A stretch of 64,000 nt of DNA from Candidatus Zambryskibacteria bacterium RIFCSPLOWO2_01_FULL_39_39 (GCA_001823925.1 MHWB01000004.1:22390-86389), one strand, 5' to 3'. Positions 14,522 through 52,957 are shown, counted from the stretch's first letter. The notes: generated from the letters alone by a model not told the origin. Translations and numbers: made by a program.

Positions 14522-15498
14522 TCAAAATTAAATTAAGCACCCATAACTATTCCCATTCCATCAGGGCAGAGATGTTATCTCACACTCCAAACAACTCCGG
14601 TAAATGGGGAAATTTTCAATTCTTTATAAACGAACACGTAAGCGAATGTGATTACTGGGTAGTAGTGGATTGTCTGCCAGAAAAAGAATCTGCACTGTGT
14701 CCGAAAAATAATCTTATCTTTATTACCTGCGAACCAAGCGCTATAAAAAAGTACAATCAAAAATTTCTGAGCCAGTTTTCCAAAATTATTACCAGTCAGC
14801 GCAATATAAAGCACCCCGCGGTCTATCACATGCCTTCAGGCCACGAATGGTGGCCAAAGAAAAGTTTTGACGAGTTATACGGACACGACAAAGTAGAAAA
14901 AACCAAATTGATTTCAATCGTCGCCTCCAATAAGATTTACACACCCGGACACAAGAAAAGATTGGAGTTTTGCCTTAATCTTAAAAATTATTTTGGAGAC
15001 AAGATAGATATGTTTGGTAGAGGCACTAGAGCCTTTGAGGATAAATGGGATGTGCTCGCCCCATACAAGTATTCAATTGCGATTGAAAACAGTACTGAAC
15101 CTGATTATATATCGGAAAAATTTACCGATTGTTTCGTCTGCCTAACCTTTCCATTCTACTACGGTTGTCCAAATGTCCACGACTATTATGACGAAAATTC
15201 CTATCAAACTATAGATATTGGTGATTTTAAAAAATCGTGCGATATGATAGAAAAGATTGTGGACGACAAAGATCATTACAATAGACATCTTCAGAACCTA
15301 ATCGCGACAAAAAACAAATATCTTACCCAGCGTCTTATAATGCCACTTATTGCAGATTTTATAAAAAAAGAATATAGTGCTGTTGCAGGCAGTCTTAAAG
15401 AAAGAATCACCATAAGACCCGAGAGAGAATTCCAAAAAATTATGTATGCAATTAGCGATATAAAAAAATTCTTAATAAAAATTAAGACAAAAATATGA
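14518..15498 (+). CDS. GT10-like glycosyltransferase (alpha-1,3-fucosyltransferase-like)
   Basis: YKYSIAIENSTEPDYISEKF matches the GT10 signature Y-x-F-x-L-x-FENS-x(3-4)-Y-x-TEK. It overlaps its neighbours, indicating an operon. Confidence 0.45.
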   Translation: MIKIKLSTHNYSHSIRAEMLSHTPNNSGKWGNFQFFINEHVSECDYWVVVDCLPEKESALCPKNNLIFITCEPSAIKKYNQKFLSQFSKIITSQRNIKHPAVYHMPSGHEWWPKKSFDELYGHDKVEKTKLISIVASNKIYTPGHKKRLEFCLNLKNYFGDKIDMFGRGTRAFEDKWDVLAPYKYSIAIENSTEPDYISEKFTDCFVCLTFPFYYGCPNVHDYYDENSYQTIDIGDFKKSCDMIEKIVDDKDHYNRHLQNLIATKNKYLTQRLIMPLIADFIKKEYSAVAGSLKERITIRPEREFQKIMYAISDIKKFLIKIKTKI

Positions 15499-16268
15499 AA
15501 GTGGTTATATTATGTGGCGGACTTGGAACTCGTCTAAAAGAAGAAACCGAATTTAGACCAAAACCCATGGTGTACATAGGCGACAAGCCGATTCTGTGGC
15601 ACATCATGAAAACTTACGCCCATTATGGGTTCAATGATTTTATTTTAGCACTTGGCTACAAGGGGGGTATGATTAAGGACTACTTTCATAACTACGAGCT
15701 TATGAATAGCGACATGACCATTGAATTGGGCAACCCAGAAAACAAGATTGTGCATCAAAATCACGATGAGATTGGTTGGCACATCACCCTTGCGGATACC
15801 GGCCAATATACACTTAAGGGGGCGAGACTAAAAAAACTGGAGAAATATGTGGACGGAGATGAGTTTATGATGACTTACGGTGATGGGGTTGGAGACATAA
15901 ACATTCCCGCCCTTTTGAAATTCCATAAAAGTCACGGAAAAACTGCAACAGTAACGGGAGTTATCCCAGTATCACAATATGGAAAACTATCGGTACAAAA
16001 AGACAACGTCGCTATTTTTGCCGAAAAGCCCATGTCCGATTCTTTTGTGAGTGGTGGTTTTTTTGTTTTTAATAGAGATATTTTTAAGCATCTTCGCGAT
16101 GACGATAGTTGTGATTTGGAACGCGGAACACTGGAGAAACTCTCCCAAAGAGAGCAGGTCAAAGTCTATAAACACAAAGGCTTTTGGGCTTCTATGGACA
16201 ATATAAGAGATATGGAATACCTTAATCGGCTGTGGAATGAAAAAAGAGCCAAATGGAAAATCTGGTAA
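15495..16268 (+). CDS. rfbF: Glucose-1-phosphate cytidylyltransferase
   Basis: MKVVILCGGLGTRLKEETEFRPKPMVYIGDKPILWHIM and overall length (257 aa) match RfbF/DdhA. Confidence 0.85.
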   Translation: MKVVILCGGLGTRLKEETEFRPKPMVYIGDKPILWHIMKTYAHYGFNDFILALGYKGGMIKDYFHNYELMNSDMTIELGNPENKIVHQNHDEIGWHITLADTGQYTLKGARLKKLEKYVDGDEFMMTYGDGVGDINIPALLKFHKSHGKTATVTGVIPVSQYGKLSVQKDNVAIFAEKPMSDSFVSGGFFVFNRDIFKHLRDDDSCDLERGTLEKLSQREQVKVYKHKGFWASMDNIRDMEYLNRLWNEKRAKWKIW

Positions 16269-17344
16269 AAAAATTTAAAAATAAAAAAGTTTTGATTACC
16301 GGACATACCGGTTTTAAGGGGGCATGGCTTTCAAAGATACTATTGAATTGGGGCGCTGAGGTATCTGGGATTGCCCTAGAACCTGTCGCTGGCCACAACA
16401 TGTTTGAGGCTCTCAAAATTAAAAAAGATATTAGTAATCATTTTTTAGATATCCGAGATTTTATCAAACTCAAAAAAGCGGTCGCTAAAGAAAAGCCAGA
16501 GATCGTGTTCCACCTAGCGGCCCAACCGATAGTTCGAGAGAGTTACAATAATCCTTTATATACCTTTAACTCAAATGTTATGGGTACCGCAAACCTACTT
16601 GAGGCGATACGAGAAACTAGTTCGGCAAAAAGCGTAGTTATAATCACAACCGACAAAGTTTATAAAAATAACGATTCCGGTAACCCCTTCAAAGAAGAAG
16701 ACCATCTGGGGGGTCACGATCCTTATAGTGGAAGCAAAGCGGCGGCGGAGATAGTAGTTGATTCCTATACTAAATCTTTTTTTAATCCCGCAGATTATAA
16801 AAAGAAGCACGGCACGCTTATAGCTTCGGCACGAGCCGGCAACGTTATCGGCGGCGGAGATTGGGGCACCGACCGTTTGATACCAGATTTGGTTAAGGGT
16901 ATTTTTGGTAATAAAGATGTGACCATCAGAAATCCAGAAGGGGTCAGGCCATGGCAACACGTGCTTGACGCTCTATCCGGATACCTTCTGCTTGCCGCAG
17001 AGCTTCATGGTGGTAAAAAAGAATATTGTGGCGGTTGGAACTTTGGGCCTGATGAAAAAAGTTTTTTAACGGTTAAAGAAGTGCTCGAGATGGCCTTGAA
17101 GATTTTGGGACGTGGCAGTTATATAGTTAAAAGAAATCCAAACGACCAGCATGAAGCTAAATTATTGAGATTAAATTCAGACAGAGCTAAAATGAAATTG
17201 GGTTGGCACCAAAAAATGAATACCGCCAAAACACTACAATCGACTTTTGAGTGGTATAAAAGTTTTTATAACAAAGAAGATGTTATTGCTATCACCAATA
17301 AGCAGATAAAATTATTCTTTAATAAAGGAAAAAATGAAAATTAA
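16253..17344 (+). CDS. rfbG: CDP-glucose 4,6-dehydratase
   Basis: 363-aa SDR-extended protein with VLITGHTGFKGAWL, and YxxxK within YSGSKAAAE, as in RfbG/DdhB. Confidence 0.8.
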   Translation: MENLVKKFKNKKVLITGHTGFKGAWLSKILLNWGAEVSGIALEPVAGHNMFEALKIKKDISNHFLDIRDFIKLKKAVAKEKPEIVFHLAAQPIVRESYNNPLYTFNSNVMGTANLLEAIRETSSAKSVVIITTDKVYKNNDSGNPFKEEDHLGGHDPYSGSKAAAEIVVDSYTKSFFNPADYKKKHGTLIASARAGNVIGGGDWGTDRLIPDLVKGIFGNKDVTIRNPEGVRPWQHVLDALSGYLLLAAELHGGKKEYCGGWNFGPDEKSFLTVKEVLEMALKILGRGSYIVKRNPNDQHEAKLLRLNSDRAKMKLGWHQKMNTAKTLQSTFEWYKSFYNKEDVIAITNKQIKLFFNKGKNEN

Positions 17345-17864
17345 TAAAACAAAAATTGAGGGAGTCTACACTATTGAGCTCGAATTAAGAGTTGATGAGA
17401 GAGGCTATTTTACAAGAAATTTCTGTCAGAAAGAATTGGCTGAAATGGGTATTGATTATAATATAGCCCAGATAAACCGTTCATTTACTAAAAAAGCCGG
17501 CACCATAAGAGGTATGCATTTTCAAAAGCCACCCAAAGAAGAGTCCAAAATTTTCCAGTGCCTGCAGGGAGCGATATTTTATGTAGCGATAGATTTACGC
17601 GAAAATTCAGAAACTTTTGGTAGATGGATCGGTGAAGAGTTGGGCGCAGAAAATAAAAAAATGATACTGGTACCTAAAGGATTCGGCAGTGGTTTTCAGG
17701 CACTAACCAATAATTGCGAAGTGCAGTATGCCGTCTCCGAATTTTATTCTCCGGAATACGAAAGTGGTGTGAGGTTTGATGACCCGTTTTTTGCGATCAA
17801 ATGGCCATTACCAGTAGCCTTTGTTTCGGATAAAGATAAAAATTGGCCATTGACCAAAAATTAA
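17334..17864 (+). CDS. NDP-4-keto-6-deoxyhexose 3,5-epimerase-like cupin (RmlC family)
   Basis: 176 aa with RmlC-like motifs (ERGYFTRNF, IRGMHFQ, VPKGFGSGFQ). It follows rfbF/rfbG, so it may act on a CDP-sugar. Confidence 0.65.
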   Translation: MKINKTKIEGVYTIELELRVDERGYFTRNFCQKELAEMGIDYNIAQINRSFTKKAGTIRGMHFQKPPKEESKIFQCLQGAIFYVAIDLRENSETFGRWIGEELGAENKKMILVPKGFGSGFQALTNNCEVQYAVSEFYSPEYESGVRFDDPFFAIKWPLPVAFVSDKDKNWPLTKN

Positions 17865-17869
17865 AAGTG

Positions 17870-18919
17870 ATGAGAAATACAAGAAAAAAAACAAGCCTAC
17901 CTCTTGTGAGTATTTGTATTCCAAATTATAACAATGCTCGTTATCTCAACGCCTGCATCAATAGTGCCATAAATCAAACCTATGGCAATGTGGAAATAAT
18001 TTTTGTTGATGATAATTCTTCGGATACTTCTTTAAATATTGCAAAAAAGTATGCCGGCAAAATAAAAATATTAAAAAATGAATCAAATATCGGCCAGCCC
18101 CAAAACACCAATAAATGCGTTGGATTAAGCCGAGGTAAATACATTGTGATTCTTCACAGCGATGACATGCTTTTACCGGATTTTGCCGAGAAGCTAGTGC
18201 CTTTACTTGAAAAGAATCCGAGCGTTGGCATGGCCGTTGGCGAAAGGATTCTGACCGATGAAAAAAACAAGTTAAGGAAAATTGCCCCATTTTATGATGG
18301 GGACTATCTCATACCTGGTATAAAACAAGCTAAAGTGTTCATGATGGCTTCATTTTTACCCTGCCAGGTGCTGTTGCAACGAGACATATTTTTAAAAATT
18401 GGAGGCACAGATAGCAGACATATTGTAAATCTCGACGGCTTGTTATGGTTTAAGTGCTCTCTGGAAGGAGACATAGCTTACACGCAAGAGGCAGTCTCTA
18501 TCTACCGGATACACTCCAAGCAGACAACTGCTCAATATAATCGCACCATAAACCACATGATGGAGAATTACATCACCTTGACCGAAATGTTTAGGCTTGG
18601 GAAAAAATATGCCTACCTTAGAAAATTTTTTAATGAAGCGGTGAAGAGAGTGGCGGTCATAACATTGCGCTATTGTACTGATGTTATAAGAGATAAAAAC
18701 TACGATCTCGCTAAAAAATATTTGACTCTTGCCACTGTTTTCGACTCTAAAATTATTGAGAATCATGATTATAAGGTAATAGAAAAATGCTTACGCGCTC
18801 CAGGTATAAAACGAGACCAAATGATTAAAAAGTTTATAAGTAAAGACAAACTTAGAGATAGAGGATTTAGCTATAGCCCACCTAGAGGAAGTGTTCGCAT
18901 TGACAAGAGCCTAAAATGA
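17870..18919 (+). CDS. GT2 family glycosyltransferase
   Basis: VSICIPNYNNARYLNACINSAINQTY...VDDNSSD: GT-A fold with DxD. The ORF track starts at 17843; I prefer the ATG at 17870. Confidence 0.7.
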   Translation: MRNTRKKTSLPLVSICIPNYNNARYLNACINSAINQTYGNVEIIFVDDNSSDTSLNIAKKYAGKIKILKNESNIGQPQNTNKCVGLSRGKYIVILHSDDMLLPDFAEKLVPLLEKNPSVGMAVGERILTDEKNKLRKIAPFYDGDYLIPGIKQAKVFMMASFLPCQVLLQRDIFLKIGGTDSRHIVNLDGLLWFKCSLEGDIAYTQEAVSIYRIHSKQTTAQYNRTINHMMENYITLTEMFRLGKKYAYLRKFFNEAVKRVAVITLRYCTDVIRDKNYDLAKKYLTLATVFDSKIIENHDYKVIEKCLRAPGIKRDQMIKKFISKDKLRDRGFSYSPPRGSVRIDKSLK

Positions 18920-18959
18920 GTTACTCTGTATTTGGATAGTATTTTTGAAAAGGGGAGAA

Positions 18960-20252
18960 ATGAAAACCAACTTGGTTACCGATCTGATTGGGAGCAAAAA
19001 AATCATTATCTATGGTGCTGGGAGGATAGGAAAGCAAGTTCTCCTCGCACTTCGACCTTGTGGACGCACACCAGAATTCTTCTGGGATAAGAATGCCGCC
19101 ACCATTGGCGCGTCCATCGATGATGTTAGTATATTTGAGCCAAACTTTGACTTCATTCCTCAAAACCTAAGGAACGAATACTCCGTGATCATCACAGTGG
19201 CAGCCAAAGATGTCGGACGCCGGATCGGCAACGATTTGGCGAGTCTCGACTACAACGTCATCTACGATAGAGAGACGATCAACACCTTTATCTACAAAAC
19301 ATGCGAAGTGGCTGTTGCAGATGGAACTTTCGTTTTCAACTTGGAAACTTGTCGTACGTGCCCAGTTCCAACAACCGACGGACAGGCTTCCTGCGACATC
19401 TTCAACGGATATCTAGTAAATCTAGCCGGAGGGGCAGAGAGTACTCAAACCAAAGCGGAAAAACTTATCATCCCAAGACTCGGACTCTTGATAGGCAACA
19501 AATGCAACCTGTGTTGCAATGGGTGCAACCACCTAGTTGATCTCTACAAGCCCGGCGAGGCTCAATTCTTGAAGACCTCCGACCTTCTCTACGACATCGC
19601 AAGAGTCTCGAAAGAAGCAGACCTCATTAATAAAGTGGTGGTCGTCGGAGGAGAGGCTTTCCTTCACCCAGATCTACAAGAGATTCTGAGAAGGCTTCTT
19701 GATCTGCCGAAAATAGGATTCGTTCAGATCATAACCAACGGAGCAGTCAAACCAAAAGATCCCAGCCTATTTAAGTTGTTGGGAAACGAGAGGATTATCG
19801 TCGAGATTAGTGGCTATGGTAGTGAACTCTCGGCCCGATTAAGTCAGAGCGTACAGGAATTCCAAGCCCAGCTTAGAGAATACAACGTCTCTCACCATTA
19901 TTTGGGAACACTTCAGTGGTTTGATTTTGGCAATTTCTCAAAGAGGCCTTACTCCGAAGCGGAGCACAAGCGAGTCTACGAAACATGTTGTTCCGTTTCG
20001 AACGACATCTGGGACGGAAGACTCTACAAGTGTAGTCGTAGCGCAATCGGAACACACTTAGGTCATCTTCCAGATTTCCATGGCGATTACGTCGACCTGC
20101 GACAACATTCGGGCGCGGAGTTGAGACAGAAGTTAATCCAGTTCTTTGAGAACAAAGGGCCAGAAGCGTGTCTGCACTGCAACGGGGCTTCGTCTACCTC
20201 TGTAATTGAAGCAGGTAAACAAGTCCCCAGATTTCAGATTCACCAGCAATGA
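18960..20252 (+). CDS. Radical SAM protein with N-terminal Rossmann-like domain and C-terminal Cys-rich auxiliary region
   Basis: ~50% GC. CNLCCNGC = CxxxCxxC, GGEAFLHPD and IITNG motifs. N-terminal IIIYGAGRIG glycine loop. The C-terminal Cys cluster (CCSVSND...CSRS...CLHCNG) is SPASM/twitch-like. The GGGGAG SD 4 nt upstream supports the ATG at 18960 over the TTG at 18945. Confidence 0.65.
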   Translation: MKTNLVTDLIGSKKIIIYGAGRIGKQVLLALRPCGRTPEFFWDKNAATIGASIDDVSIFEPNFDFIPQNLRNEYSVIITVAAKDVGRRIGNDLASLDYNVIYDRETINTFIYKTCEVAVADGTFVFNLETCRTCPVPTTDGQASCDIFNGYLVNLAGGAESTQTKAEKLIIPRLGLLIGNKCNLCCNGCNHLVDLYKPGEAQFLKTSDLLYDIARVSKEADLINKVVVVGGEAFLHPDLQEILRRLLDLPKIGFVQIITNGAVKPKDPSLFKLLGNERIIVEISGYGSELSARLSQSVQEFQAQLREYNVSHHYLGTLQWFDFGNFSKRPYSEAEHKRVYETCCSVSNDIWDGRLYKCSRSAIGTHLGHLPDFHGDYVDLRQHSGAELRQKLIQFFENKGPEACLHCNGASSTSVIEAGKQVPRFQIHQQ

Positions 20253-20269
20253 GTGATCTGAAACCAATC

Positions 20270-20298
20270 ACCCACCGTGTCACACTGGTGGGTTTTTT
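20270..20298 (+). terminator. Rho-independent terminator
   Basis: ACCCACC-gtgtcacact-GGTGGGT stem followed by TTTTTT, 18 nt after the stop of the first radical SAM gene. Confidence 0.55.
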
Positions 20299-20322
20299 AT
20301 TATATTAAGACTTAATTTACTG

Positions 20323-20365
20323 TTGACATCTTAATAAATTTTAAGCAGTATGGAGGAGGACTCCC
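20323..20365 (+). promoter_or_regulatory. Putative sigma70-like promoter plus GGAGGAGG Shine-Dalgarno
   Basis: TTGACA at 20323-20328, a 17-nt spacer, then a weak -10 (CAGTAT). A GGAGGAGG SD sits 8 nt before the ATG at 20369. Confidence 0.3.
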
Positions 20366-20368
20366 GTA

Positions 20369-21436
20369 ATGGGAAGTTCTTTACACAAGGAGTATCAAAT
20401 GAGATTGCCTAGATACGATATACGAGAGACAGCATTGGAGACGGTAATTCCGCTTTCCACTCCGCTTTTAATTTACGTCGACCCCTCTAGCGCCTGCAAT
20501 TTCCAGTGTGGATTCTGTCCCACTGCAGATCGAGACTTAATGAAGCAGACAAGGTTTGTTGGCTTCATGGACTTTGACCTCTACCGCAAGATCATCGACG
20601 ACTTCAGAGAGTTTGATCGACCGATCGATAAGTTGAAGCTCTACTGTGATGGCGAACCACTGCTCAACCCGCGCTTTGCGGACATGGTCCGCTATGCCAA
20701 AAAAAGCGGGCTCGTGAATCGGATCACGACTACGACCAATGCTTCCCGTCTCTCGCCTGAATTAAACCTTCGGATCGTTGAAGCGGGTCTAGATCAGATT
20801 AACATCTCGGTCTATGGTATGAACGCGGATCAGTACCGTGATTTTTCCAAAACCAAGATAGAGTTTGATTCTTTGGTAGCAAACATCCGCCACCTTTACG
20901 AACATCGAAGCCAATGTGAAATCAAGGTGAAGATCAACGGTGATGTCATTTCGCGGGAAGACGAGGTTCGGTTCTATGAAATTTTTGAACCGATCGCCGA
21001 CGGAGTAAACGTGGAGCACGTAATGTCGTGTTGGGTACAGACACCAGAGTGGAACCTTGCAGAAAATGGCCTCGCTCCCAACCCCAATACCGGAATCCAC
21101 GGTCAGTCCATTCAAGATGTCCTTGTGTGCCCGTATGTTTTCTACTCCTTTACCATTCATCCAGACGGCACGGCAAGCGCATGTTTTCTGGACTGGCAGA
21201 GAAAACTTCTGATCGGTGATGTACGGACCCAGAGCGTTAAAGAAATCTGGGATGGACCTCTCTTGCGGGAACACCAAGCTCTTATGCTCCAAGGCAAACG
21301 GAGGAGTCACCCTATCTGTGGTAGTTGTGGCCAGATGAGCCACGGTGTAGTACCCCAAGACAACATTGATCCTCACCGAGAGGTGCTTCTAGATGGGTTC
21401 GAGAAGCGACTTGTACAAATTCAACCGAGGAATTGA
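20369..21436 (+). CDS. Radical SAM / SPASM-domain protein (anSME / peptide-maturase-like)
   Basis: ~50% GC. CNFQCGFC = CxxxCxxC, GEPLLNP, and a C-terminal SPASM-type Cys array (CPYVF...DG...C...CGSCGQ). Confidence 0.75.
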   Translation: MGSSLHKEYQMRLPRYDIRETALETVIPLSTPLLIYVDPSSACNFQCGFCPTADRDLMKQTRFVGFMDFDLYRKIIDDFREFDRPIDKLKLYCDGEPLLNPRFADMVRYAKKSGLVNRITTTTNASRLSPELNLRIVEAGLDQINISVYGMNADQYRDFSKTKIEFDSLVANIRHLYEHRSQCEIKVKINGDVISREDEVRFYEIFEPIADGVNVEHVMSCWVQTPEWNLAENGLAPNPNTGIHGQSIQDVLVCPYVFYSFTIHPDGTASACFLDWQRKLLIGDVRTQSVKEIWDGPLLREHQALMLQGKRRSHPICGSCGQMSHGVVPQDNIDPHREVLLDGFEKRLVQIQPRN

Positions 21437-21456
21437 TTCTTCCGGTTGGCTATTTC

Positions 21457-21496
21457 GCGACGTATACTTCCAAGTTTACGTCGCTTTTATTTTTAT
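21457..21496 (+). terminator. Rho-independent terminator
   Basis: Perfect 8-bp stem GCGACGTA / TACGTCGC with a 12-nt loop, followed by TTTTATTTTTAT. Confidence 0.6.
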
Positions 21497-21545
21497 GGTA
21501 AGTAAGACAAGTTTTATAGGATATGCTAATATCCAATTTAATAAA

Positions 21546-22697
21546 ATGGGTAAAAAAACTAAAATTAAGCAAGCTGTGATAGTAGCTGGAGGCAAAGGCT
21601 CTCGGCTAAAATCACTTACCGACGACCGACCCAAACCGATGGTGTTAGTCAATGGACGACCTTTTTTGGAATACCTTGTCAGGATGCTCGTGGCAAATGG
21701 CCTCAAAGAAGTGTTGATTCTCGTCGGTTATAAAGGCGAGAAAATTATTGAGCATTTTGGAGACGGCTCCAAATTTGGAATCAAGATTAAATATTCAATC
21801 GGGACAATAGAGGAAAATAATGGCACTCGCTTAAAAAACGCAACTCATCTTTTGGATAAACACTTTTTATTTATGTATTGCGATATTTATTGGCCGTTAG
21901 ATTTGGAAAAATTGATCAGGCATTATGACAAGTACGATGTCTTGGGAATGATGACTCTCTATAACAACAAAGATAATCGGGGTGAATATGGTACGAGAAA
22001 CCTGGTCCAACTGACTACTTCCGGCCACATTATAAATTACGGGCCATGGCAGGATGATGTTTTGTACTCTCCCACCTTTAAGGGCATAGACTTGGGCTAT
22101 TATATCTTGAACCGAGACGTAGTGCCTTTGATGCCCAAAAAAGATTTTGAGTTTCAAGGAGGTTTGGTCAGCCAAAAACTAGCTCCAAACAAAGAACTCA
22201 TCGGTTTTGGTACCGATCATACCTATTGCACCATTACAGACATCAATTTTCTTAAAATGGCCGAGAAATTTTTGGCTCCGAAAAGAATAATATTTCTTGG
22301 GTACGATGTATTAAACGAACACTTCTCTAAAACCCTACCGGCACTCAAAATGCTTCAAGCCAATGACTATAAGATATTCGTCATGGGAAATAAACCCGAC
22401 CATACCAAATCTTATTCAAAAATAAAAAGTGAACTTAAGCGTCAAAAAATTCAAATCAAAAGATTTTATTTCTGTTCCCACCACCCAAAAGACCGGTGCG
22501 AATGCCGTTTGCCCAGAGCCGGTTTATTCTTTCAAGCAGCCGGTGATCATCATATCAATCTGACCGAATCATTTTTTATAGATTCTAATAAATGGAGTTC
22601 ATTTATCGGCGAGGAAACAGGCTGTCAAACTTTAATAATTTCTAAAAAAGATTCCCTGCTTAAATTGGTTAAAAGAATTGTTGCTCTTGACTTTTAA
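21546..22697 (+). CDS. Bifunctional sugar-phosphate nucleotidyltransferase / HAD-family (GmhB-like) phosphatase
   Basis: N-terminal AVIVAGGKGSRLKSLTDDRPKPMV (NTP-transferase G-loop). C-terminal RIIFLGYDVLNEHF...CSHHPKDRCECRLPRAGL resembles the GmhB HAD IIIA phosphatase. I prefer the ATG at 21546 because the 21393 start overlaps the upstream gene. Confidence 0.6.
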   Translation: MGKKTKIKQAVIVAGGKGSRLKSLTDDRPKPMVLVNGRPFLEYLVRMLVANGLKEVLILVGYKGEKIIEHFGDGSKFGIKIKYSIGTIEENNGTRLKNATHLLDKHFLFMYCDIYWPLDLEKLIRHYDKYDVLGMMTLYNNKDNRGEYGTRNLVQLTTSGHIINYGPWQDDVLYSPTFKGIDLGYYILNRDVVPLMPKKDFEFQGGLVSQKLAPNKELIGFGTDHTYCTITDINFLKMAEKFLAPKRIIFLGYDVLNEHFSKTLPALKMLQANDYKIFVMGNKPDHTKSYSKIKSELKRQKIQIKRFYFCSHHPKDRCECRLPRAGLFFQAAGDHHINLTESFFIDSNKWSSFIGEETGCQTLIISKKDSLLKLVKRIVALDF

Positions 22698-22738
22698 AAG
22701 TAAACAATATATGATTTCTCCTAGAAGGAGGTGCGCAA

Positions 22739-23518
22739 GTGTACACCAGCAGACAAGCAAAAGCAGCTTTGAAAAAGATTGTTTGGAAAGAAGGGAAAAT
22801 CTTCCCAATTGCAGAGGGGCCATATCGCTATCGAACTTTGGTCCACTGCAGCAAAGAAGGCCGACAAAGGACCGAGTTTGCCAACGGCGAGCGTCCATAT
22901 TTTTGTTATTTAGAGCTCGTCGCCGGCAATAGTGGTGCCATCAAGGGAGGGGTTAGTATAGTGCCGATTCTCCCCGATGGCCGACTCATTATGGTAGTGG
23001 AACAACGACCAGCTCAGTACCACCACCATCCAGCTATTAATCCCTGGATCAACGGGATAGAGACAGATTTGGGTCAATATGGGCCTTTCAGCTCTCTTGA
23101 GTTTCCAGGAGGAGCCATCGATCCCGGACAAGGACTTAAGGGAGCGTTTCTTCAGGAACTATCGGAAGAAACTGAGGTGGAGGAACAGACCGCTCTCTGC
23201 TACCGCAGAGTGCATCCCGTCCACTGCGCTGGCTCTGAAATCGTTGGGGAGCAATTCATTGCTGTGATATTTTTGTCCGGTCTCACCCATGCTTCCAAAG
23301 TGGAGACGGACGGTGGGCTAAAGGTTTTCGCCTTAAGCCCAAAAGAGGTTCAGAAAAATATCTGGAGGGGCGCCATCAGTTCCGGGCCAACATTGCATGG
23401 GTGGATGTTTTACCAAGAAGTGTTGGGGATGAGAGAAAATCTCCAACACCAAGAGCTCATGGAGCAAACCATGAGCTACGTAGAGATGGAAGAAATAAAC
23501 ATTGCCAAGCAAAAATAA
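22739..23518 (+). CDS. Nudix-like hydrolase
   Basis: ~55% GC. FPGGAIDPGQGLKGAFLQELSEETEV is a Nudix-box-like sequence. GTG start preceded by a GAAGGAGG SD. Confidence 0.5.
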   Translation: MYTSRQAKAALKKIVWKEGKIFPIAEGPYRYRTLVHCSKEGRQRTEFANGERPYFCYLELVAGNSGAIKGGVSIVPILPDGRLIMVVEQRPAQYHHHPAINPWINGIETDLGQYGPFSSLEFPGGAIDPGQGLKGAFLQELSEETEVEEQTALCYRRVHPVHCAGSEIVGEQFIAVIFLSGLTHASKVETDGGLKVFALSPKEVQKNIWRGAISSGPTLHGWMFYQEVLGMRENLQHQELMEQTMSYVEMEEINIAKQK

Positions 23519-23539
23519 GATTTCACAATCAGTCCCTCT

Positions 23540-23569
23540 GGGAGCCGCTTCGCGGCTCCCTTTTCTTTT
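23540..23569 (+). terminator. Rho-independent terminator
   Basis: GGGAGCCGC-ttc-GCGGCTCCC 9-bp stem followed by TTTTCTTTT. Confidence 0.65.
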
Positions 23570-23600
23570 GCAGAATTTCCTGATAATCTAGATTATTCAT

Positions 23601-23972
23601 ATGGAGAAGCACAAAATTCACTTACTTTTTATTTGCACAGCCAATGTTGTGCGGAGCCCGGTAGCGGCTAGCCTTTTTGAAAAATCAAACAAATATGAAG
23701 CAAGGTCAGCCGGCACATCACTTAGTCCAGACTTCCCTAACGCTACAGCCGTGAACCAAGAACTAATAGATTGGGCTGACGAGATCATTGTCATGTCGGA
23801 AAAAGAAGATCATCACGCAACTTACCTCTCCACTCATTTTGATTTGAAAGATAAAAAAATAAAAGTGCTCGATATACCCAATATTTATATCGTTGGGATA
23901 CCAGAGCATCAAGCAACTCTTCTTCAAATATTAAAACAAAAACTGGCTGGCTATCTTGACATTAATAAATAA
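23601..23972 (+). CDS. Low-molecular-weight phosphotyrosine phosphatase / ArsC-like protein
   Basis: 123 aa. LLFICTANVVRSP fits the CX5R(S) P-loop of the LMW-PTP/arsenate reductase fold. Confidence 0.5.
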   Translation: MEKHKIHLLFICTANVVRSPVAASLFEKSNKYEARSAGTSLSPDFPNATAVNQELIDWADEIIVMSEKEDHHATYLSTHFDLKDKKIKVLDIPNIYIVGIPEHQATLLQILKQKLAGYLDINK

Positions 23973-24003
23973 GTATGTATAGTACAGGGAGGAAGGAATA
24001 CCG

Positions 24004-24309
24004 ATGGAAATATTCGGAAGTTGGTCTAAAGAGATTACTTGTCCAGAGTGCGGATCACTTCTGGGCATCACTGCCGAGGACATTACTTTCAAAGTAAAAG
24101 AGCCGGCCGAACACAAAAGACGCAGTGAGCGGGGCAAGCCCATCTACTTTGTCGCCTGCCCCGAATGCCGTCGCGAAATCGTAATCCAGGAAAGTTTCAG
24201 CGGCAGCCTGCCCGAATCGGTCAAGGCGACGGCACAGGAACGGACCGGGTTTGACTCAAAAGAGTACTTCGGGCGTCCCTTGTACGCTCCGTGGGACAAT
24301 GGCACATAA
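24004..24309 (+). CDS. Zinc-ribbon hypothetical protein
   Basis: 101 aa, ~55% GC, two CPEC pairs (Cys4 zinc ribbon). Strong AGGGAGGAAGG SD. Confidence 0.4.
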   Translation: MEIFGSWSKEITCPECGSLLGITAEDITFKVKEPAEHKRRSERGKPIYFVACPECRREIVIQESFSGSLPESVKATAQERTGFDSKEYFGRPLYAPWDNGT

Positions 24310-24342
24310 ATCAGGGACGACTAACTAAGTACATTGAACCCT

Positions 24343-24376
24343 GAGGGGCACGCGCGAGCCGCCCCTCTTTTCTTTT
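24343..24376 (+). terminator. Rho-independent terminator
   Basis: GAGGGGC-acgcgcgagcc-GCCCCTC followed by TTTTCTTTT. The downstream 30 nt are paralogous to those after the 23540 terminator. Confidence 0.6.
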
Positions 24377-24409
24377 GGAAAATTTCCTGGTAGTCTTGGG
24401 GATAATAAA

Positions 24410-25318
24410 ATGACCAAAAAAAAGATTCTAATAATTGGTAAAAATGGCCAGTTGGCGGGAGCCATTCAAGCAGAAGTAGGCTCTTTTGGGTTTGAGGTGA
24501 TAGCTTTTGATAGGCAAGAAATGGACGTGACAAACTGGCCCCAAGTCAAAAAGATATTGGACAAAATAAAACCTGATATTTTAATAAACACTTCCGCCCT
24601 GCAAGTAGTGCTCCAATGCGAAGAAAATCCGCAAAGAGCAATGGAAGTAAATTTTTTGGCAATACAAAATCTGGCCAGAGAATGTAAGGAAAGAAATATT
24701 ATTTTTGTCACCTACAGTAGCGATTATGTTTTTGATGGCGAAAAAGGATCGGCTTATGAAGAAGACGACCTCCCCAATCCCCTACAGATATACGGCCTAT
24801 CAAAATTGGCTGGAGAGTACGCCGCGCTTTGCATTTATCCAGAGAAATCTTTTGTTGTCAGGACTGCCGGTCTTTATGGCGGAGTGAAAGGCAGTCCGGA
24901 AAAAGGAAATTTTGTTTTGAACATAATGAAAGAAGCGACAGAAAAAGCTAAGGCAGGAGTAGGTATGGAGGTTAGTTCGGAGCAAATAGTCAGTCCAACT
25001 TATGCCGGCGACCTTGCCAAAGCCACTCTGGAGCTACTCTCTATGAAAGTAGATCCTGGAATATACCATCTAGTAAACGAAGGGGGCTGCAGTTGGTATG
25101 AGTTCACAAAAGAAATTTTTAAGTTAGCCAAAATTAATGTGCCATTATCTCCAATTGACAGGGGTGGCTTAAGTGCCAAAGGGGGCAATACGGCCGGTAA
25201 AGTTAGACGCCCAAAATTTTCTATCCCAAAAAATACCAGAGCCAGAGCTCTTGGTATAGTTCTCCCTTCTTGGCAAGAAGGTTTGGCATCCTATTTTAGA
25301 TTTTTAAATTCTATATGA
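24410..25318 (+). CDS. rmlD: dTDP-4-dehydrorhamnose reductase
   Basis: 302 aa. ILIIGKNGQLAG N-terminal motif and YGLSKLAGE catalytic region as in RmlD. Confidence 0.8.
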   Translation: MTKKKILIIGKNGQLAGAIQAEVGSFGFEVIAFDRQEMDVTNWPQVKKILDKIKPDILINTSALQVVLQCEENPQRAMEVNFLAIQNLARECKERNIIFVTYSSDYVFDGEKGSAYEEDDLPNPLQIYGLSKLAGEYAALCIYPEKSFVVRTAGLYGGVKGSPEKGNFVLNIMKEATEKAKAGVGMEVSSEQIVSPTYAGDLAKATLELLSMKVDPGIYHLVNEGGCSWYEFTKEIFKLAKINVPLSPIDRGGLSAKGGNTAGKVRRPKFSIPKNTRARALGIVLPSWQEGLASYFRFLNSI

Positions 25319-26520
25319 AATGCCCCATCTGCAAAACAGATAAAAGTAGACCCCTGCTCAATCTGGATTGTGGTAGTTTGGACAATTCACTGATTTATAA
25401 AACTGCAAAAATAGTCACATGTAAAAAATGCGGACATATCTATAATTCTTTGTCCCTAAAAGAAATTCTAGATTTAAAAAAATATTATGACCAAGAATCA
25501 GCTCCGACTAATTTAGGATCTCCAGACAAAGTCGGAGACAAAACAGGAAATACTGGCCCGTTTACTATGCAACGTTATAATAAATTATATACGTCAATTT
25601 CTCCTTACCTCAACACAAAAATGAAAATTTTGGACTGCGGGTGCGCAACTGGTGGTTTTTTGGATTATTTGTCAGGCAAAGGATTCAAAAAACTTAATGG
25701 ATTTGAAATAAGCAAAACCTACAGAAATCAGTCCAAAAAATGGAAAGAAAAAATAAAAATTGGTGATATGGATTTGGCAGTCCCCTTCCCTCATAAATCT
25801 TTAGATTTTTTGGTGGCAGACCAAGTAATAGAACACCTCTATAATCCACGCAAAGCCTTCAAAGAAGCCGCGAGAGTTTTAAGTGATGGAGGGTATCTTT
25901 GCGTAAGTGTTCCAGATGCTTCGCGGTACATCAAGAATTATTTTTTTGATTTCTATTGGTTTATTCTCAGGGAGCATATCGAACATTTCGATATTGAACA
26001 TTTAAAATTACTTGCCTCTTTAGAAGGTTTTGAACTTGTAAGTTTTACTAGATACGAAACCCCAATGATGACAAGCAAAATGATTTTACCTGTTTTGACT
26101 GCTGTTTTTCGCTTTTCTTCAAATACAGAGCTGAAAATAAATAAAAAACATTTTTTGTTAAAAAAAGAGATAAGTAAATATATAAAAAGAGATACAAAAA
26201 AACTAAAAAATAAAAAGAAATTATTTGAACATTTAGCAAAAAAAAGATTACCTATATATGCATGGGGAATAGGAAGAGAGTTCTTGTATATTTATGAAGC
26301 CACGGGGCTTAAGAGATGTAAGATTGCTGGACTTGTAGACCTCAATCCATACAAACAAAAGCATGTTTTGATTGGCAAAAATAAAATAGAAGATAAGTTT
26401 GTGTTAACCAAAGCAGAAAATAATTCCCAGATAATCATTAGCGCAATTGCTCACAAGAAAACAATAACAGCGGAACTGAAAAAAATGGGCTACCGAGGTA
26501 AAATTATAAATTTTAAATAA
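25315..26520 (+). CDS. NDP-hexose C-methyltransferase-like (TylCIII/EryBIII family: Zn-ribbon + SAM MTase + C-terminal domain)
   Basis: N-terminal CPIC...CKKCGH zinc ribbon, SAM motif ILDCGCATGGFLDYL, and a C-terminal ~100-aa domain resembling the C-methyltransferase C-terminal domain. Confidence 0.55.
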   Translation: MKCPICKTDKSRPLLNLDCGSLDNSLIYKTAKIVTCKKCGHIYNSLSLKEILDLKKYYDQESAPTNLGSPDKVGDKTGNTGPFTMQRYNKLYTSISPYLNTKMKILDCGCATGGFLDYLSGKGFKKLNGFEISKTYRNQSKKWKEKIKIGDMDLAVPFPHKSLDFLVADQVIEHLYNPRKAFKEAARVLSDGGYLCVSVPDASRYIKNYFFDFYWFILREHIEHFDIEHLKLLASLEGFELVSFTRYETPMMTSKMILPVLTAVFRFSSNTELKINKKHFLLKKEISKYIKRDTKKLKNKKKLFEHLAKKRLPIYAWGIGREFLYIYEATGLKRCKIAGLVDLNPYKQKHVLIGKNKIEDKFVLTKAENNSQIIISAIAHKKTITAELKKMGYRGKIINFK

Positions 26521-26523
26521 ATT

Positions 26524-27864
26524 ATGAAAAATAATAAGATAACAAAAATACTCCATATTACTCCCCATCTCGGCACAGGAGTTGGTACTGTAGTATTGAA
26601 CTATTTAAAAAAAGTAGTTAAAAATCAACACTTTGAACACAGAGTTGTCTGCCTAGACTATGCAAATAAAAATTCTATAATTGTTTCAAAAAAAATAGGT
26701 TTTAAGCTGTGGGGAGATATGTCAAAGAAAAAAGAAGATGTGCTTAGTCTGATTGCTAAATCAGACATAGTTTTGGTTCATTGGTGGAACCACCCATTGC
26801 TCTACGATTTTTTGGTCCGTGAAAAATTACCACCAAATCGTATCATATTTTGGAGCCACGTATTAGGCTCTGTCCCCCCAAACAATTTCTCTAACAAGCT
26901 CCTTAAGTATCCAGATATTTTCATTTTCACCACCCCCGTAAGTTTTAAAGTCAAAGAAGTACAAAACTTGCCACCAAAATATAAAAAAAATATGAATAGC
27001 ATTTGGTCTACAGGGGGGGTAGAAAGACTAAAACACATTAAACACCAAAAGCATGACGGATTTAATGTGGGCTATATTGGTACCGTTGATTATACTAAAT
27101 TAAATCCTGATTTCTTTGATATGAGTCAGAGCGCCAACATACCAAATGTAAAATTTATTGTAGTGGGAGGACCAAATTCAAAGTTAATGGAAGAAGAAGC
27201 AAAAAACCGTGGTTTAAGTGACAAATTTATATTTACAGGGTATATCTCTGAAGAAGAAAAGTGGAAATATTTATCTATGTTTGATGTCTTTGGCTACCCT
27301 CTTGCCAGACACCACTACGGTTCCTCTGACCAGGCTCTGCAGGAAGCTATGGGTACAGGAGTTGTACCAGTGGTTTTTGATAACTTAATGGAAAAATTTA
27401 TGGTAAAAAACGGAAAAACCGGTTTAATGGTAAAAAATAAAACAGAGTATGCCAAAGCCCTAGAAAGTCTGTACAAGGACAGCAAATTAAGAGACCGCCT
27501 TTCTAAAAACACAAAGAGGTATGCTAAAGAAGTTTTTTCTCTTCAGAATATGGAGCGCGAGTGGAATAAAATTTTTATGAAAACTTTGAAACTTAAAAAG
27601 ACCGAGAAAAAATGGCAAATAAATAAATCAGCAAAAGAGATAGCGCCAAAGGACATATTTGTGGAATCAATCGGAAAGTATAGTAAACATTTTATTTCTT
27701 ATTGTAAGGCAAAAAAATTGAATGAAAAAAAATTGGCAGAAGAAAAAATTAAAAATTTAGCAAAACACCCAAATTGGAGTACAAAATCAAAAGGTACGGT
27801 TCATCAATACAATACTTTTTTGCCTGGTGACAAATATCTTTCTTTTTGGAGTAAAATAATGTAA
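26524..27864 (+). CDS. GT4 family glycosyltransferase with C-terminal extension
   Basis: 446 aa. GT-B donor domain (GTGVVPVVFDN..., E-x7-E region) plus a ~100-aa Lys-rich tail. Contains a G7 tract at 27013-27019. Confidence 0.6.
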   Translation: MKNNKITKILHITPHLGTGVGTVVLNYLKKVVKNQHFEHRVVCLDYANKNSIIVSKKIGFKLWGDMSKKKEDVLSLIAKSDIVLVHWWNHPLLYDFLVREKLPPNRIIFWSHVLGSVPPNNFSNKLLKYPDIFIFTTPVSFKVKEVQNLPPKYKKNMNSIWSTGGVERLKHIKHQKHDGFNVGYIGTVDYTKLNPDFFDMSQSANIPNVKFIVVGGPNSKLMEEEAKNRGLSDKFIFTGYISEEEKWKYLSMFDVFGYPLARHHYGSSDQALQEAMGTGVVPVVFDNLMEKFMVKNGKTGLMVKNKTEYAKALESLYKDSKLRDRLSKNTKRYAKEVFSLQNMEREWNKIFMKTLKLKKTEKKWQINKSAKEIAPKDIFVESIGKYSKHFISYCKAKKLNEKKLAEEKIKNLAKHPNWSTKSKGTVHQYNTFLPGDKYLSFWSKIM

Positions 27865-52771: not shown

Positions 52772-52957
52772 GATAGAATCCTTTCTTGATTCTGTTTCAA
52801 AGGTCCATAAACACATCTCGCATTAACATGGTGCAAATGCAGACGCAAATATTCGTATCTAATCTACCTACAGTATAGCAAATCTTGTATCAAATGTCAA
52901 GCCCGATCTACGCTACTGCGCGGATCGGGCTTTTGGTGGCTCAACAGAGCCATATTT

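Follow-up and report, generated by a model that had tools for sequence, protein, structure and literature searches.

Two adjacent genes for radical S-adenosylmethionine (radical-SAM) enzymes lie inside the surface-glycan locus of a 64,000-nucleotide stretch of DNA from Candidatus Zambryskibacteria bacterium RIFCSPLOWO2_01_FULL_39_39 (GCA_001823925.1, MHWB01000004.1:22390-86389; hereafter the window, in its whole length), and they raise the question of what they do there and how they came to be there. The proteins of the window are 100% identical to protein-database entries of this organism, a member of the candidate phyla radiation (CPR). A first-pass annotation of the DNA had taken positions 18945-24409 for a GC-rich foreign island. 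We find a glycan locus whose conserved radical-SAM enzymes are in this lineage probably GC-rich xenologues, with lineage-specific additions around them, and no foreign island with a pair of enzymes of the kind that modifies ribosomal peptides. On balance we consider it probable that this is a mosaic glycan locus with a Wzm/Wzt exporter and without any single island, that the two radical-SAM genes are regular parts of its glycan module, and that the mechanism and the lineage-specific accessories are as proposed below. Family membership, genomic contexts, folds, conserved residues, composition and repeats were established in the analysis, while substrate, reaction type and direction of transfer are what we infer. 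Compared loci and contigs are given L-numbers (L001 is the contig identical to the window) and database protein entries P-numbers. The genes at the centre of the argument are:

17870 to 18919, + strand: GT2 glycosyltransferase (PF00535), partner of rSAM1 and here called GT2a, with background GC (0.37)
18960 to 20252, + strand: rSAM1, in which a Rossmann-like N-terminal domain and a linker with four invariant cysteines precede a twitch radical-SAM domain like that of SpeY (PF04055)
20369 to 21436, + strand: rSAM/SPASM, a BtrN-like twitch radical-SAM enzyme of 355 amino acids (PF04055, PF13186)

Both enzymes belong to the radical SAM superfamily, as rSAM/SPASM matches PF04055 with 60.5 bits and rSAM1 with 37.3 bits (threshold 29.5), and the motifs C43-X3-C47-X2-C50 and C187-X3-C191-X2-C194 are invariant in their respective families. 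In rSAM/SPASM this core is followed by an auxiliary domain that matches the SPASM family PF13186 with 50.3 bits (threshold 21.5). A full SPASM domain carries a seven-Cys motif, including CX2CX5CX3C for a second auxiliary cluster; in the window's family, only C254, C272, C317 and C320 are invariant in this domain (CX12GX4C...CX2C) and the X5CX3C part is missing, so that it is no full SPASM domain and, judging by its cysteines, displays the single-cluster twitch pattern of BtrN. Two further cysteines, C183 and C221, are invariant in the family. The AlphaFold model of the protein (pLDDT 87) finds as its best distinct Foldseek matches in the PDB BtrN (E 6e-14), followed by DesII, the sactipeptide maturase 5why and BlsE, which means that three of the four are radical-SAM enzymes of carbohydrates or nucleotide sugars. 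The family profile likewise matches BtrN (E 1.8e-16), in an alignment that runs through the Cys-bearing auxiliary-cluster domain, and since the profile matches of the two window proteins to BtrN and SpeY reach the C-terminal Cys region, both have the make-up of twitch carbohydrate enzymes, namely a core with a truncated SPASM domain and one 4-Cys cluster.

BtrN, the butirosin 2-deoxy-scyllo-inosamine dehydrogenase (4m7t, 4m7s), is thus the best match of rSAM/SPASM by profile as well as by fold, shares with it the core, the C-terminal twitch and the CX17-18C...CX2C arrangement, and acts on a carbohydrate-like secondary alcohol. There are differences too: the two are ~16% identical, rSAM/SPASM is ~90 residues longer and has the extra invariant C183 and C221, and it lies in a surface-glycan locus with genes for a cytidine diphosphate (CDP)-6-deoxyhexose and a GT1 glycosyltransferase, whereas BtrN belongs to an aminoglycoside cluster. 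DesII, which acts on a TDP-sugar, and BlsE, which acts on a nucleoside sugar (7vob), show that radical-SAM enzymes can work on nucleotide-linked sugars, but they are 16-18% identical to rSAM/SPASM, which scores 32 bits against a cutoff of 450 with the NCBIfam model of DesII and 26 against 400 with that of BlsE.

The first enzyme, rSAM1, probably begins at 18960, as called on the contig identical to the window and as in a 430-residue database entry (P0121). Its N-terminal ~110 residues form, by family alignment and model (AlphaFold, pLDDT 90), a β-α-β domain with an invariant GxGxxG motif and an invariant Asp48, behind which follows an invariant motif of four cysteines (Cys120, Cys136, Cys139 and Cys150). 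By far its best PDB match is SpeY (7wzx, 7wzv; E 4e-13, target-normalised TM 0.70-0.72), the twitch dehydrogenase of spectinomycin biosynthesis (also 7x0b), to which the family profile matches with an E-value of 3.9e-12; weaker profile matches lead to the NAD-binding domain of Rex (2e-4) and to the N-terminal domain of NeuD/PglD. With SpeY it shares the core and the C-terminal Cys-cluster region over ~235 residues, from which it differs in being 20% identical, in carrying an N-terminal extra of ~170 residues (the Rossmann-like domain and the invariant Cys4 motif) and in being coupled, sometimes by fusion, to a GT2 glycosyltransferase. A domain shared between this N-terminal region and the C-terminus of a downstream methyltransferase (PF22674) was considered and rejected, at BLASTP E-values of 0.4-0.55 and with no significant Pfam match. 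No NCBIfam model reaches its cutoff for either radical-SAM protein, and a full-text literature search returned no paper on either family, its sole relevant match being a study of a Brachyspira plasmid (PMC4267127).

Neither family is peculiar to this genome. There are 1776 relatives of rSAM/SPASM in the protein database, most of them 57-62% identical and 333-345 residues long, and a scan of one genome per species located ~330 sites encoding a relative at 49-78% identity, across many bacterial phyla and archaea (Methanospirillum purgamenti and metagenome-assembled genomes of Methanoperedenaceae and Promethearchaeota). What surrounds these genes is best seen against the sugar pathway of the window itself, upstream of which lie a Wzm/Wzt ABC exporter, an FkbM-type methyltransferase and a GT10 gene, and which extends on both sides of the radical-SAM genes, ending beyond RmlD in two methyltransferase-type genes, a GT1 and a GT2 gene:

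15495 to 16268, + strand: glucose-1-phosphate cytidylyltransferase, entry to the CDP-6-deoxyhexose pathway (TIGR02623, 327 bits, cutoff 300)
16253 to 17344, + strand: CDP-glucose 4,6-dehydratase (TIGR02622, 463 bits, cutoff 278)
17334 to 17864, + strand: RmlC-type 3,5-epimerase (TIGR01221, 168.5 bits, cutoff 155.75)
24410 to 25318, + strand: RmlD-type 4-reductase (TIGR01214, 248 bits, cutoff 224)
25315 to 26520, + strand: MT23, a zinc-ribbon and SAM methyltransferase (PF13489), frequent neighbour of rSAM/SPASM
26524 to 27864, + strand: GT1 glycosyltransferase of 446 residues (PF00534 on the identical contig), the partner found most constantly with rSAM/SPASM genes
27877 to 28632, + strand: CmcI-like, rhamnosyl-O-methyltransferase-like protein (PF04989 on the identical contig; NF045824 below cutoff)

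Because all four pathway enzymes (cytidylyltransferase, 4,6-dehydratase, RmlC and RmlD) score above the curated NCBIfam equivalog cutoffs, the product of the locus is, at the level of gene content, predicted to be a CDP-activated 6-deoxy-L-hexose of the rhamnose type. The steps of 4,6-dehydration, 3,5-epimerisation and 4-reduction are those of the dTDP-L-rhamnose pathway (RmlA-D), from which the window differs in the activation of the sugar by CDP (RfbF/RfbG types) and in the radical-SAM, methyltransferase and glycosyltransferase genes interleaved with the pathway.

It is with genes of this kind that the rSAM/SPASM family travels. When the 80 best loci were searched within 10 kb, with the proteins of the window's own locus as the only queries, a GT1 gene was found in 72, an RmlC-like gene in 60, a cytidylyltransferase in 47, a 4,6-dehydratase in 46, MT23 in 34, a CmcI-like gene in 30 and an RmlD-type gene in eight. 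The genes that accompany the two enzymes in the window are rare in this company: the fusion of a nucleotidyltransferase with a phosphatase-like domain has homologues in four of the loci (just one at >30% identity), the Nudix-like gene in two, and the phosphatase-like and zinc-ribbon genes in none of the 80. Where both are present, the RmlC-like gene mostly lies 5' of rSAM/SPASM, and the customary order runs cytidylyltransferase, dehydratase, RmlC-like gene, (C-methyltransferase, short-chain dehydrogenase/reductase, SDR), rSAM/SPASM, (MT23), GT1 and CmcI. As this is also the order in the window, rSAM/SPASM is in the normal position of its family, and occupies by synteny a slot that holds across phyla, 3' of the 4,6-dehydratase and RmlC and 5' of the 446-residue GT1.

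Part of this layout is a near-constant gap of 2.0-2.3 kb between the RmlC-like gene and rSAM/SPASM in twelve loci (L015, L016, L020, L021, L026, L030, L033, L038, L062, L064, L070, L078). Of five gaps that were read, four (L016, L026, L030, L064) contain a zinc-ribbon methyltransferase, of ~405 residues in L026, L030 and L064 and 321 in L016, together with an SDR of ~290-310 residues, and the fifth (L038) has the SDR and, in the place of the methyltransferase, a different open reading frame (ORF) of 453 codons. A 405-residue counterpart in a further CPR locus (L175) has the Methyltransf_13/14 domains of nucleoside diphosphate (NDP)-hexose C-methyltransferases. The window has no such C-methyltransferase gene, and its sugar therefore probably lacks a C-methyl branch.

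This context also bears on the analogy, drawn in the first-pass annotation, with paired radical-SAM/SPASM enzymes that mature peptides made by the ribosome and modified after translation (RiPPs). There is a Pfam SPASM match and there are weak NCBIfam matches to sactipeptide and ranthipeptide maturases, but the scores with RiPP-maturase models lie far under their cutoffs (e.g., 33 bits against 340), the auxiliary domain has the 4-Cys twitch pattern alone, the top structural matches are carbohydrate enzymes, and the neighbours that recur in the 80 loci, as detected with the proteins of the window's own locus as queries and without a direct search for precursor peptides, are genes for sugar-nucleotide enzymes, methyltransferases and glycosyltransferases. 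The analogy accordingly lacks support, and that both enzymes mature a RiPP is exceedingly improbable. Nearly the same applies to an anti-phage module in which a viperin-like radical-SAM enzyme, a nucleotidyltransferase and a Nudix protein would make or clear modified nucleotides. The weak matches to PADLOC pVip (47.7 bits) and NCBIfam viperin_w_prok are what would suggest it; the latter reaches 42 bits where 180 would be needed, the former aligns with no more than the generic radical-SAM core (its positions 8-145 of 257), the protein resembles BtrN and not viperin in its C-terminal domain, the other four proteins have no PADLOC match, and the neighbourhood is constantly one of glycan biosynthesis, which makes this reading very improbable. 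An origin in phage or defence systems was likewise not borne out by the PHROG and PADLOC matches, these being a generic radical-SAM PHROG, pVip and one weak PHROG for a protein of unknown function (the zinc-ribbon protein).

For rSAM1 the constant companion is GT2a. The rSAM1 family is smaller (59 relatives in the protein database), and the true orthologues always occur with a GT2a orthologue (L011, L012, L013, L028, L035, L077, L085), among them the pair in the cultured methanotroph Methylotuvimicrobium buryatense (L013). In L012 the order RmlC, GT2, rSAM1, rSAM/SPASM, RmlD is that of the window minus its accessory genes. A metagenomic protein (P0170) even joins the two in one chain, with residues 2-323 59% identical to GT2a (over 334 residues) and residues 322-691 38% identical to rSAM1. 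On these comparisons rSAM1 is the conserved partner of GT2a, and since the pair is conserved, and fused in P0170, the left border of the proposed island, which falls between the two genes, cuts through a functional pair.

Radical chemistry on a sugar or glycoconjugate, which had been put forward beside the RiPP analogy, is therefore supported, and is by far the best reading, given the NDP-sugar and glycosyltransferase neighbours in the 80 loci and the carbohydrate enzymes among the best structural matches; the searches with both proteins, which the first-pass annotation had proposed as a check, returned widespread families in glycan loci with BtrN-like and SpeY-like folds. In the mechanism that we propose, each enzyme would cleave SAM reductively and use the resulting 5'-deoxyadenosyl radical to abstract a hydrogen from a hydroxyl-bearing carbon of a sugar, which could be a CDP-6-deoxyhexose or a residue freshly transferred onto a lipid-linked glycan. 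The substrate radical might then be oxidised to a ketone, by analogy with BtrN and SpeY; it might receive a hydrogen from a cysteine on the opposite face, resulting in epimerisation; or it might lose the vicinal hydroxyl in a dehydration or deoxygenation of the BlsE/AprD4 type, with the neighbouring SDR completing the reduction. HygY and NeoN, relatives of SpeY, are epimerases in which a cysteine re-donates the hydrogen. The close association of rSAM/SPASM with GT1 and with the genes for the CDP-6-deoxyhexose suggests that its substrate is among their products, i.e., the nucleotide sugar or the residue that GT1 would install, and the fusion with GT2 suggests that rSAM1 works on the donor or the product of that transferase, in which case its Rossmann-like domain could provide a site for a nucleotide or NAD(P)H. 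Dehydrogenation or epimerisation would have not quite an even chance and dehydration a smaller one, with other chemistry taking up the remainder.

The dehydration route deserves a closer look, as the BtrN-like enzyme could be a radical 1,2-diol dehydratase, similar to AprD4 and BlsE, that with the adjacent SDR reductase yields a dideoxy sugar. BlsE is among the top structural matches of rSAM/SPASM, and in most loci an SDR gene lies directly beside the radical-SAM gene. BtrN, a dehydrogenase, nevertheless matches best by profile as well as by fold, most of all in the domain of the auxiliary cluster, and the SDR is equally well explained as the 4-ketoreductase of the pathway, the window's copy scoring above the RmlD equivalog cutoff, so that we hold a diol dehydratase to be possible but doubtful. 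In PMC10267522, reference 54 has BlsE as a radical 1,2-diol dehydratase.

How the genes came to be in the locus is a question of composition and synteny, for which the remaining features of the GC-rich stretch are needed:

20270 to 20293, + strand: intrinsic-terminator-like hairpin with a T-run after rSAM1 (fold z -2.1)
21457 to 21496, + strand: terminator-like hairpin with a U-run after rSAM/SPASM (fold of 21437-21545, z -2.5)
21546 to 22697, + strand: nucleoside triphosphate (NTP)-transferase with a degenerate GmhB-like HAD domain, a decayed HddC-GmhB fusion (PF00483; NCBIfam HddC and GmhB models below cutoff)
22739 to 23518, + strand: Nudix-like protein of 259 amino acids with a GTG start and a strong Shine-Dalgarno sequence, GC 0.49 (PF00293, 26.9 bits against 21.1)
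23540 to 23560, + strand: strong terminator hairpin after the Nudix-like gene (z -3.3)
23553 to 23589, + strand: copy 1 of a direct repeat, from a duplication of the Nudix-RmlD intergenic region, 81% identical to copy 2
23601 to 23972, + strand: protein of 123 amino acids similar to low-molecular-weight protein tyrosine phosphatases (LMW-PTP) and YwlE, here called PTP-like, with background GC (PF01451 over residues 9-41 only; weak PDB match to YwlE)
24004 to 24309, + strand: Cys4 zinc-ribbon protein, GC 0.53 (sub-threshold matches to zinc-ribbon Pfam families)
24343 to 24376, + strand: terminator-like hairpin with a U-run after the zinc-ribbon gene, from fold analysis
24360 to 24396, + strand: copy 2 of the direct repeat, from the repeat comparison

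Sliding-window GC rises from ~0.36-0.39 to 0.47 at 19.0 kb and holds until 21.5 kb, is 0.36-0.39 across 21.5-22.7 kb, 0.50-0.51 at 22.75-23.5 kb and 0.39 near 23.5-24.0 kb, and peaks a second time at 0.50 at 24.0-24.5 kb, decaying afterwards; the whole window has 0.374. The same alternation is seen gene by gene, in total GC, in GC at third codon positions (GC3) and in GC3 z-scores for which the remaining 50 of the 55 ORFs in the window served as reference (mean 0.337, sd 0.064; three GC-rich genes were scored): rSAM1 (GC 0.472, GC3 0.516, z 2.8), rSAM/SPASM (0.486, 0.537, z 3.1), the Nudix-like gene (0.492, 0.512, z 2.9) and the zinc-ribbon gene (0.533, 0.598) are atypical, while the NTP-transferase::HAD fusion (0.380, 0.398, z 0.9) and the PTP-like gene (0.387, 0.355, z 0.3) are at background, as compared with 0.413 and 0.363 in rmlD. 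The anomaly is thus real, with a maximal tetranucleotide distance at 19-21 kb (z 4.0) and the proposed borders at ~18.95 and ~24.4 kb, but the GC-rich stretch is a patchwork, compositionally mosaic, and neither a continuous rise nor a single block. For four of the genes the composition does point to another history or another regime.

In these genes the signals of translation and transcription also differ from those of the flanks, much as first described. The codon shift is general, with C-ending NNY codons about twice as frequent and AAG, GAG, CAG, CGN, GGG and TCG increased, with Lys down from 11.6% to 5.3% and Arg up from 3.6% to 5.9%. Ahead of rSAM1 (ATG at 18960), rSAM/SPASM, the Nudix-like gene with its GTG start and the zinc-ribbon gene there are strong Shine-Dalgarno sequences (GGAGGAGG, AAGGAGGT, GGGAGGAAGG and GAGGTG), whereas flanking genes overlap or abut and lack them. 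A stem-loop terminator had been ascribed to every unit; terminator-like hairpins follow four of the six (rSAM1, rSAM/SPASM, Nudix and zinc ribbon).

The decisive comparison is with the nearest sampled relative (L004/L014), whose flanking proteins are 60-78% identical to those of the window. At the same site it carries rSAM/SPASM (79% identical, the most conserved locus protein in the comparison with L004), the HAD fusion (64%) and the Nudix-like gene (60-62%), with the same high-low-high GC pattern and a divergence of the shared genes that equals that of the flanks; there is thus no empty site. GT2a, rSAM1, the PTP-like and the zinc-ribbon genes are missing, and a HIT gene and an unrelated ORF rich in Cys are found instead. 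The sister-genome comparison that the first-pass annotation had suggested therefore has a divided outcome, half of the proposed island being syntenic in the relative, mosaic included, and half missing from it, and by that annotation's own standard it refutes the island in part.

The reading of 18945-24409 as one recently acquired island, inserted as a self-contained modification cassette between the GT2 gene and rmlD, draws on the abrupt change of GC and tetranucleotides at both borders, on the Shine-Dalgarno sequences, promoter-like sites and terminators of its own, on codons and amino acids that are used as in a GC-richer background, and on the fact that RmlD directly follows RmlC in the next relatives. 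It is contradicted by the background GC of two of the six genes, by the left border, which splits the conserved and sometimes fused GT2-rSAM1 pair, by the radical-SAM genes being integral to the module in other phyla, with rSAM/SPASM in its usual slot, and above all by L004/L014, where three of the genes lie in synteny, show this mosaic too and have diverged to the same degree as the flanks, which largely refutes it. Neither an integrase nor a transposase lies within 10 kb of the stretch to left or right, an Rfam scan of the window shows no tRNA at the borders, and the only convincing repeats are internal, surrounding the PTP-like and zinc-ribbon unit alone. A single recent island is thus improbable; what endures of the idea of horizontal acquisition is the atypical composition of four genes, and not one self-contained foreign unit.

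The internal repeats point to a smaller event. Two 37-nt direct repeats (81% identical, with similarity extending beyond them and comprising terminator and leader) bracket an 807-bp unit with the PTP-like and zinc-ribbon genes, and in both L004 and L014 the Nudix-RmlD intergenic region is present in a single copy. The unit would accordingly be a later insertion, judging from these repeats, by way of a duplication of that intergenic region.

More distant relatives shed light on the earlier steps. In four loci with an RmlD 60-65% identical to that of the window (L094, L095, L099, L101), RmlC and RmlD are followed by rSAM/SPASM and then by MT23 and/or GT1, with CmcI in L094 and L095, and GC is uniform and native throughout; their radical-SAM genes fall into another clade than the window's copy in a neighbour-joining (NJ) tree, and the window's rSAM/SPASM is 58% identical to that of L094, below the flanking proteins (59-65%). 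This order and native GC in the next relatives fit a replacement in the window's lineage, in which a native rSAM/SPASM gave way, together with the arrival of the Nudix-like gene, to a GC-richer xenologue before the window and L004 split; gain or retention of GT2a-rSAM1 and then the insertion of the PTP-like and zinc-ribbon unit fit as later events. It is probable that the GC-rich genes came in, as newcomers or in place of native copies, from a source with a higher GC that was probably itself CPR: the Nudix family has 104 homologues, of which the six taxon-labelled ones are all CPR, with relatives in further CPR NDP-sugar loci (L175, L176), and as it is known from CPR genomes only, the likely donor pool is CPR and no distant phylum. 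Closer sisters were sought without success, RmlD finding nothing above 65% identity in a metagenome scan and rSAM/SPASM nothing between 79% and 100% in the protein database. Between the window and L004, synonymous sites are near-saturated both in the GC-rich genes and in those of the flanks (NG86 dS not computable or >1.7), and the fraction of identical codons at conserved residues is 0.37-0.63 against an expected 0.37-0.44, with the same residual signal in both gene classes, so that a separate dating of the GC-rich genes is impossible.

Several points weigh against this account of mosaic history and sugar-directed chemistry. A GC3 offset of ~+0.2 is kept in the same genes of both lineages despite near-saturation, which sits uneasily with a relic left by one old transfer, as by a simple two-state estimate half to three-quarters of the offset should have disappeared from such a relic; either the donor was therefore very GC-rich or something maintains the bias. 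GT2a is at background and rSAM1 is GC-rich, a difference not accounted for by simply transferring the two together; no donor from beyond CPR can be named, and all relatives other than those of the L004/L014 lineage are at most 71% identical, most of them ~60%; and the NJ tree has no support values. As to chemistry, neither radical-SAM family has a characterised member and the nearest folds are distant (16-21% identity), and as no NCBIfam model reaches its cutoff, we infer reaction and substrate from context and these folds.

The retained offset could also mean that the GC-rich state is kept gene by gene, whether by biased gene conversion or by selection on codons or expression, in units that are transcribed autonomously and translated strongly, and is no signature of transfer. 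The offset in both lineages despite near-saturation would be accounted for in this way, as would the different GC of the co-inherited GT2a and rSAM1; the genes with strong Shine-Dalgarno sequences are the GC-rich ones, three of the four are directly followed by a terminator-like hairpin, and in the same long-branch clade of the NJ tree several deep branches, which make up most of its other members, are GC-richer than their neighbours (L011, L012, L031, L032, L073, L082). However, the rise of AAG/GAG, CGN and GGG and the shift from Lys to Arg look mutational and not translational, the other CPR clade is at native GC, and there is no family-wide excess, the mean difference in GC being 0.000, with more than +0.05 in 4 of 80 loci. 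We thus regard maintenance as unlikely, if less readily dismissed than a single island, and continue to favour the mosaic locus with xenologous copies.

The family has one relative with a link to disease. On plasmid pBHWA1 of the swine pathogen Brachyspira hyodysenteriae, a gene at 15095-16105 encodes a protein 55% identical to rSAM/SPASM over 93% of its length, beside rfbF, rfbC, an SDR and a glycosyltransferase gene as in loci of the window's type; pBHWA1 is a spirochaete plasmid and lacks window-type orthologues of rSAM1, the Nudix-like protein and the HAD fusion. A block of four plasmid genes (radical SAM, GT1-like, epimerase and rfbC) has been reported to occur in virulent strains and to be missing from strains of reduced pathogenic potential, and was assigned no biochemical function (La et al., 2014; PMC4267127). 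From the gene order, the 55%-identical gene would be gene 13 of this block. The plasmid sequence (L174; NC_012226.1, 36 kb) holds seven genes annotated as radical SAM/SPASM, together with rfbF, rfbC, SDR, glycosyltransferase and HAD hydrolase genes, and the window's rSAM/SPASM matches five places on it.

To our knowledge, almost all examples of radical-SAM chemistry on sugars belong to antibiotic pathways (BtrN, SpeY, DesII, BlsE). The two families described here, both uncharacterised, stand in the core of surface-glycan loci across hundreds of species; among these are archaea, CPR, a methanotroph open to genetics and a swine pathogen whose orthologous block tracks with virulence. It is these widespread families that are worth pursuing, one of them with an unusual Rossmann-Cys4-twitch architecture coupled to a glycosyltransferase; their reaction, once worked out, would represent a new type of step in NDP-sugar or O-antigen-like pathways and reveal the identity of the rare sugar or sugars displayed. 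In a bolder and quite tentative reading, they would belong to an unrecognised layer of surface-glycan biology in Bacteria and Archaea, in which radical-SAM enzymes tailor 6-deoxyhexoses by epimerisation or deoxygenation at unactivated carbons, the GT2-coupled enzyme perhaps while the sugar is passed to the lipid-linked chain, with a link to the virulence-associated plasmid genes of Brachyspira, and whose genes are in some CPR held far above the GC of the genome by a force other than recent transfer. The mosaic itself cautions against equating jumps in GC with simple islands, and a gene-specific GC offset that outlasts the saturation of synonymous sites poses a testable question.

The domain assignments of the first-pass annotation were all upheld by Pfam and NCBIfam, although for the fusion of an NTP-transferase with a GmhB-like phosphatase this does not extend to phosphatase function. 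Its HAD half (22400-22697) reads FLGYDVL in motif I (for FLDRDGV) and CECRLP in motif III (for CDCRKP), by which the nucleophilic Asp and the Lys are lost, and has two deletions besides; the same decay is seen in L004 and in L006, while the motifs are intact in the orthologous fusions of L009, beside GmhA and HddA, and of L176, another CPR locus. Searches with the GHMP kinase (HddA) and SIS protein (GmhA) of L009 (tblastn, limited to the 64-kb window) gave zero matches. The protein is best read, from its motifs, as a nucleotidyltransferase that has survived and whose phosphatase domain is dead, likely a pseudo-phosphatase. Alignment to orthologues places its start at ~21546. A start context TAATAAAATG(N)3AAAAAAA is common to this gene (21539-21558, ATG at 21546) and rmlD (24403-24422, ATG at 24410), which favours the shorter start and marks a flank-type initiation region that lacks a Shine-Dalgarno sequence.

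The Nudix box of the window reads GGAIDPGQGLKGAFLQELSEETEV, with QEL for REL and the EE pair retained (consensus GX5EX7REUXEEXGU), and the protein is probably an NDP-sugar hydrolase. In L004 (11166-11923) the gene is present as ORFs of 100 and 139 codons that jointly align to the 259-residue protein of the window, which reflects either a frameshift or pseudogene or an assembly error. The PTP-like protein has the P-loop CTANVVRS (CX5RS), and its Pfam and PDB matches span only residues ~5-50; LMW-PTP proteins are 150-160 residues long, i.e., longer than the 123 residues found here. The zinc-ribbon protein is nearly an orphan, with 4 matches among 1.84 billion representatives and a weak match to phrog_2834.

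The top σ70-like match in the 19 kb scanned (TTGACA-16 nt-TATAGT, 11 of 12 positions) lies at 23956-23983, within the end of the PTP-like gene and immediately 5' of the zinc-ribbon ORF. Riboswitches or other RNAs in the spacers were considered and ruled out, as no family (tRNA, rRNA or riboswitch) reached the Rfam gathering score anywhere in the 64-kb window. A second compositional outlier lies at 51668-53614 on the - strand, where a 382-codon ORF has a GC of 0.543 and a GC3 of 0.658 (z = 5 against the window's genes) and the neighbouring 218-codon ORF a GC of 0.449; neither has a Pfam match, and the tetranucleotide z reaches 3.3-3.4 at 51-54 kb.

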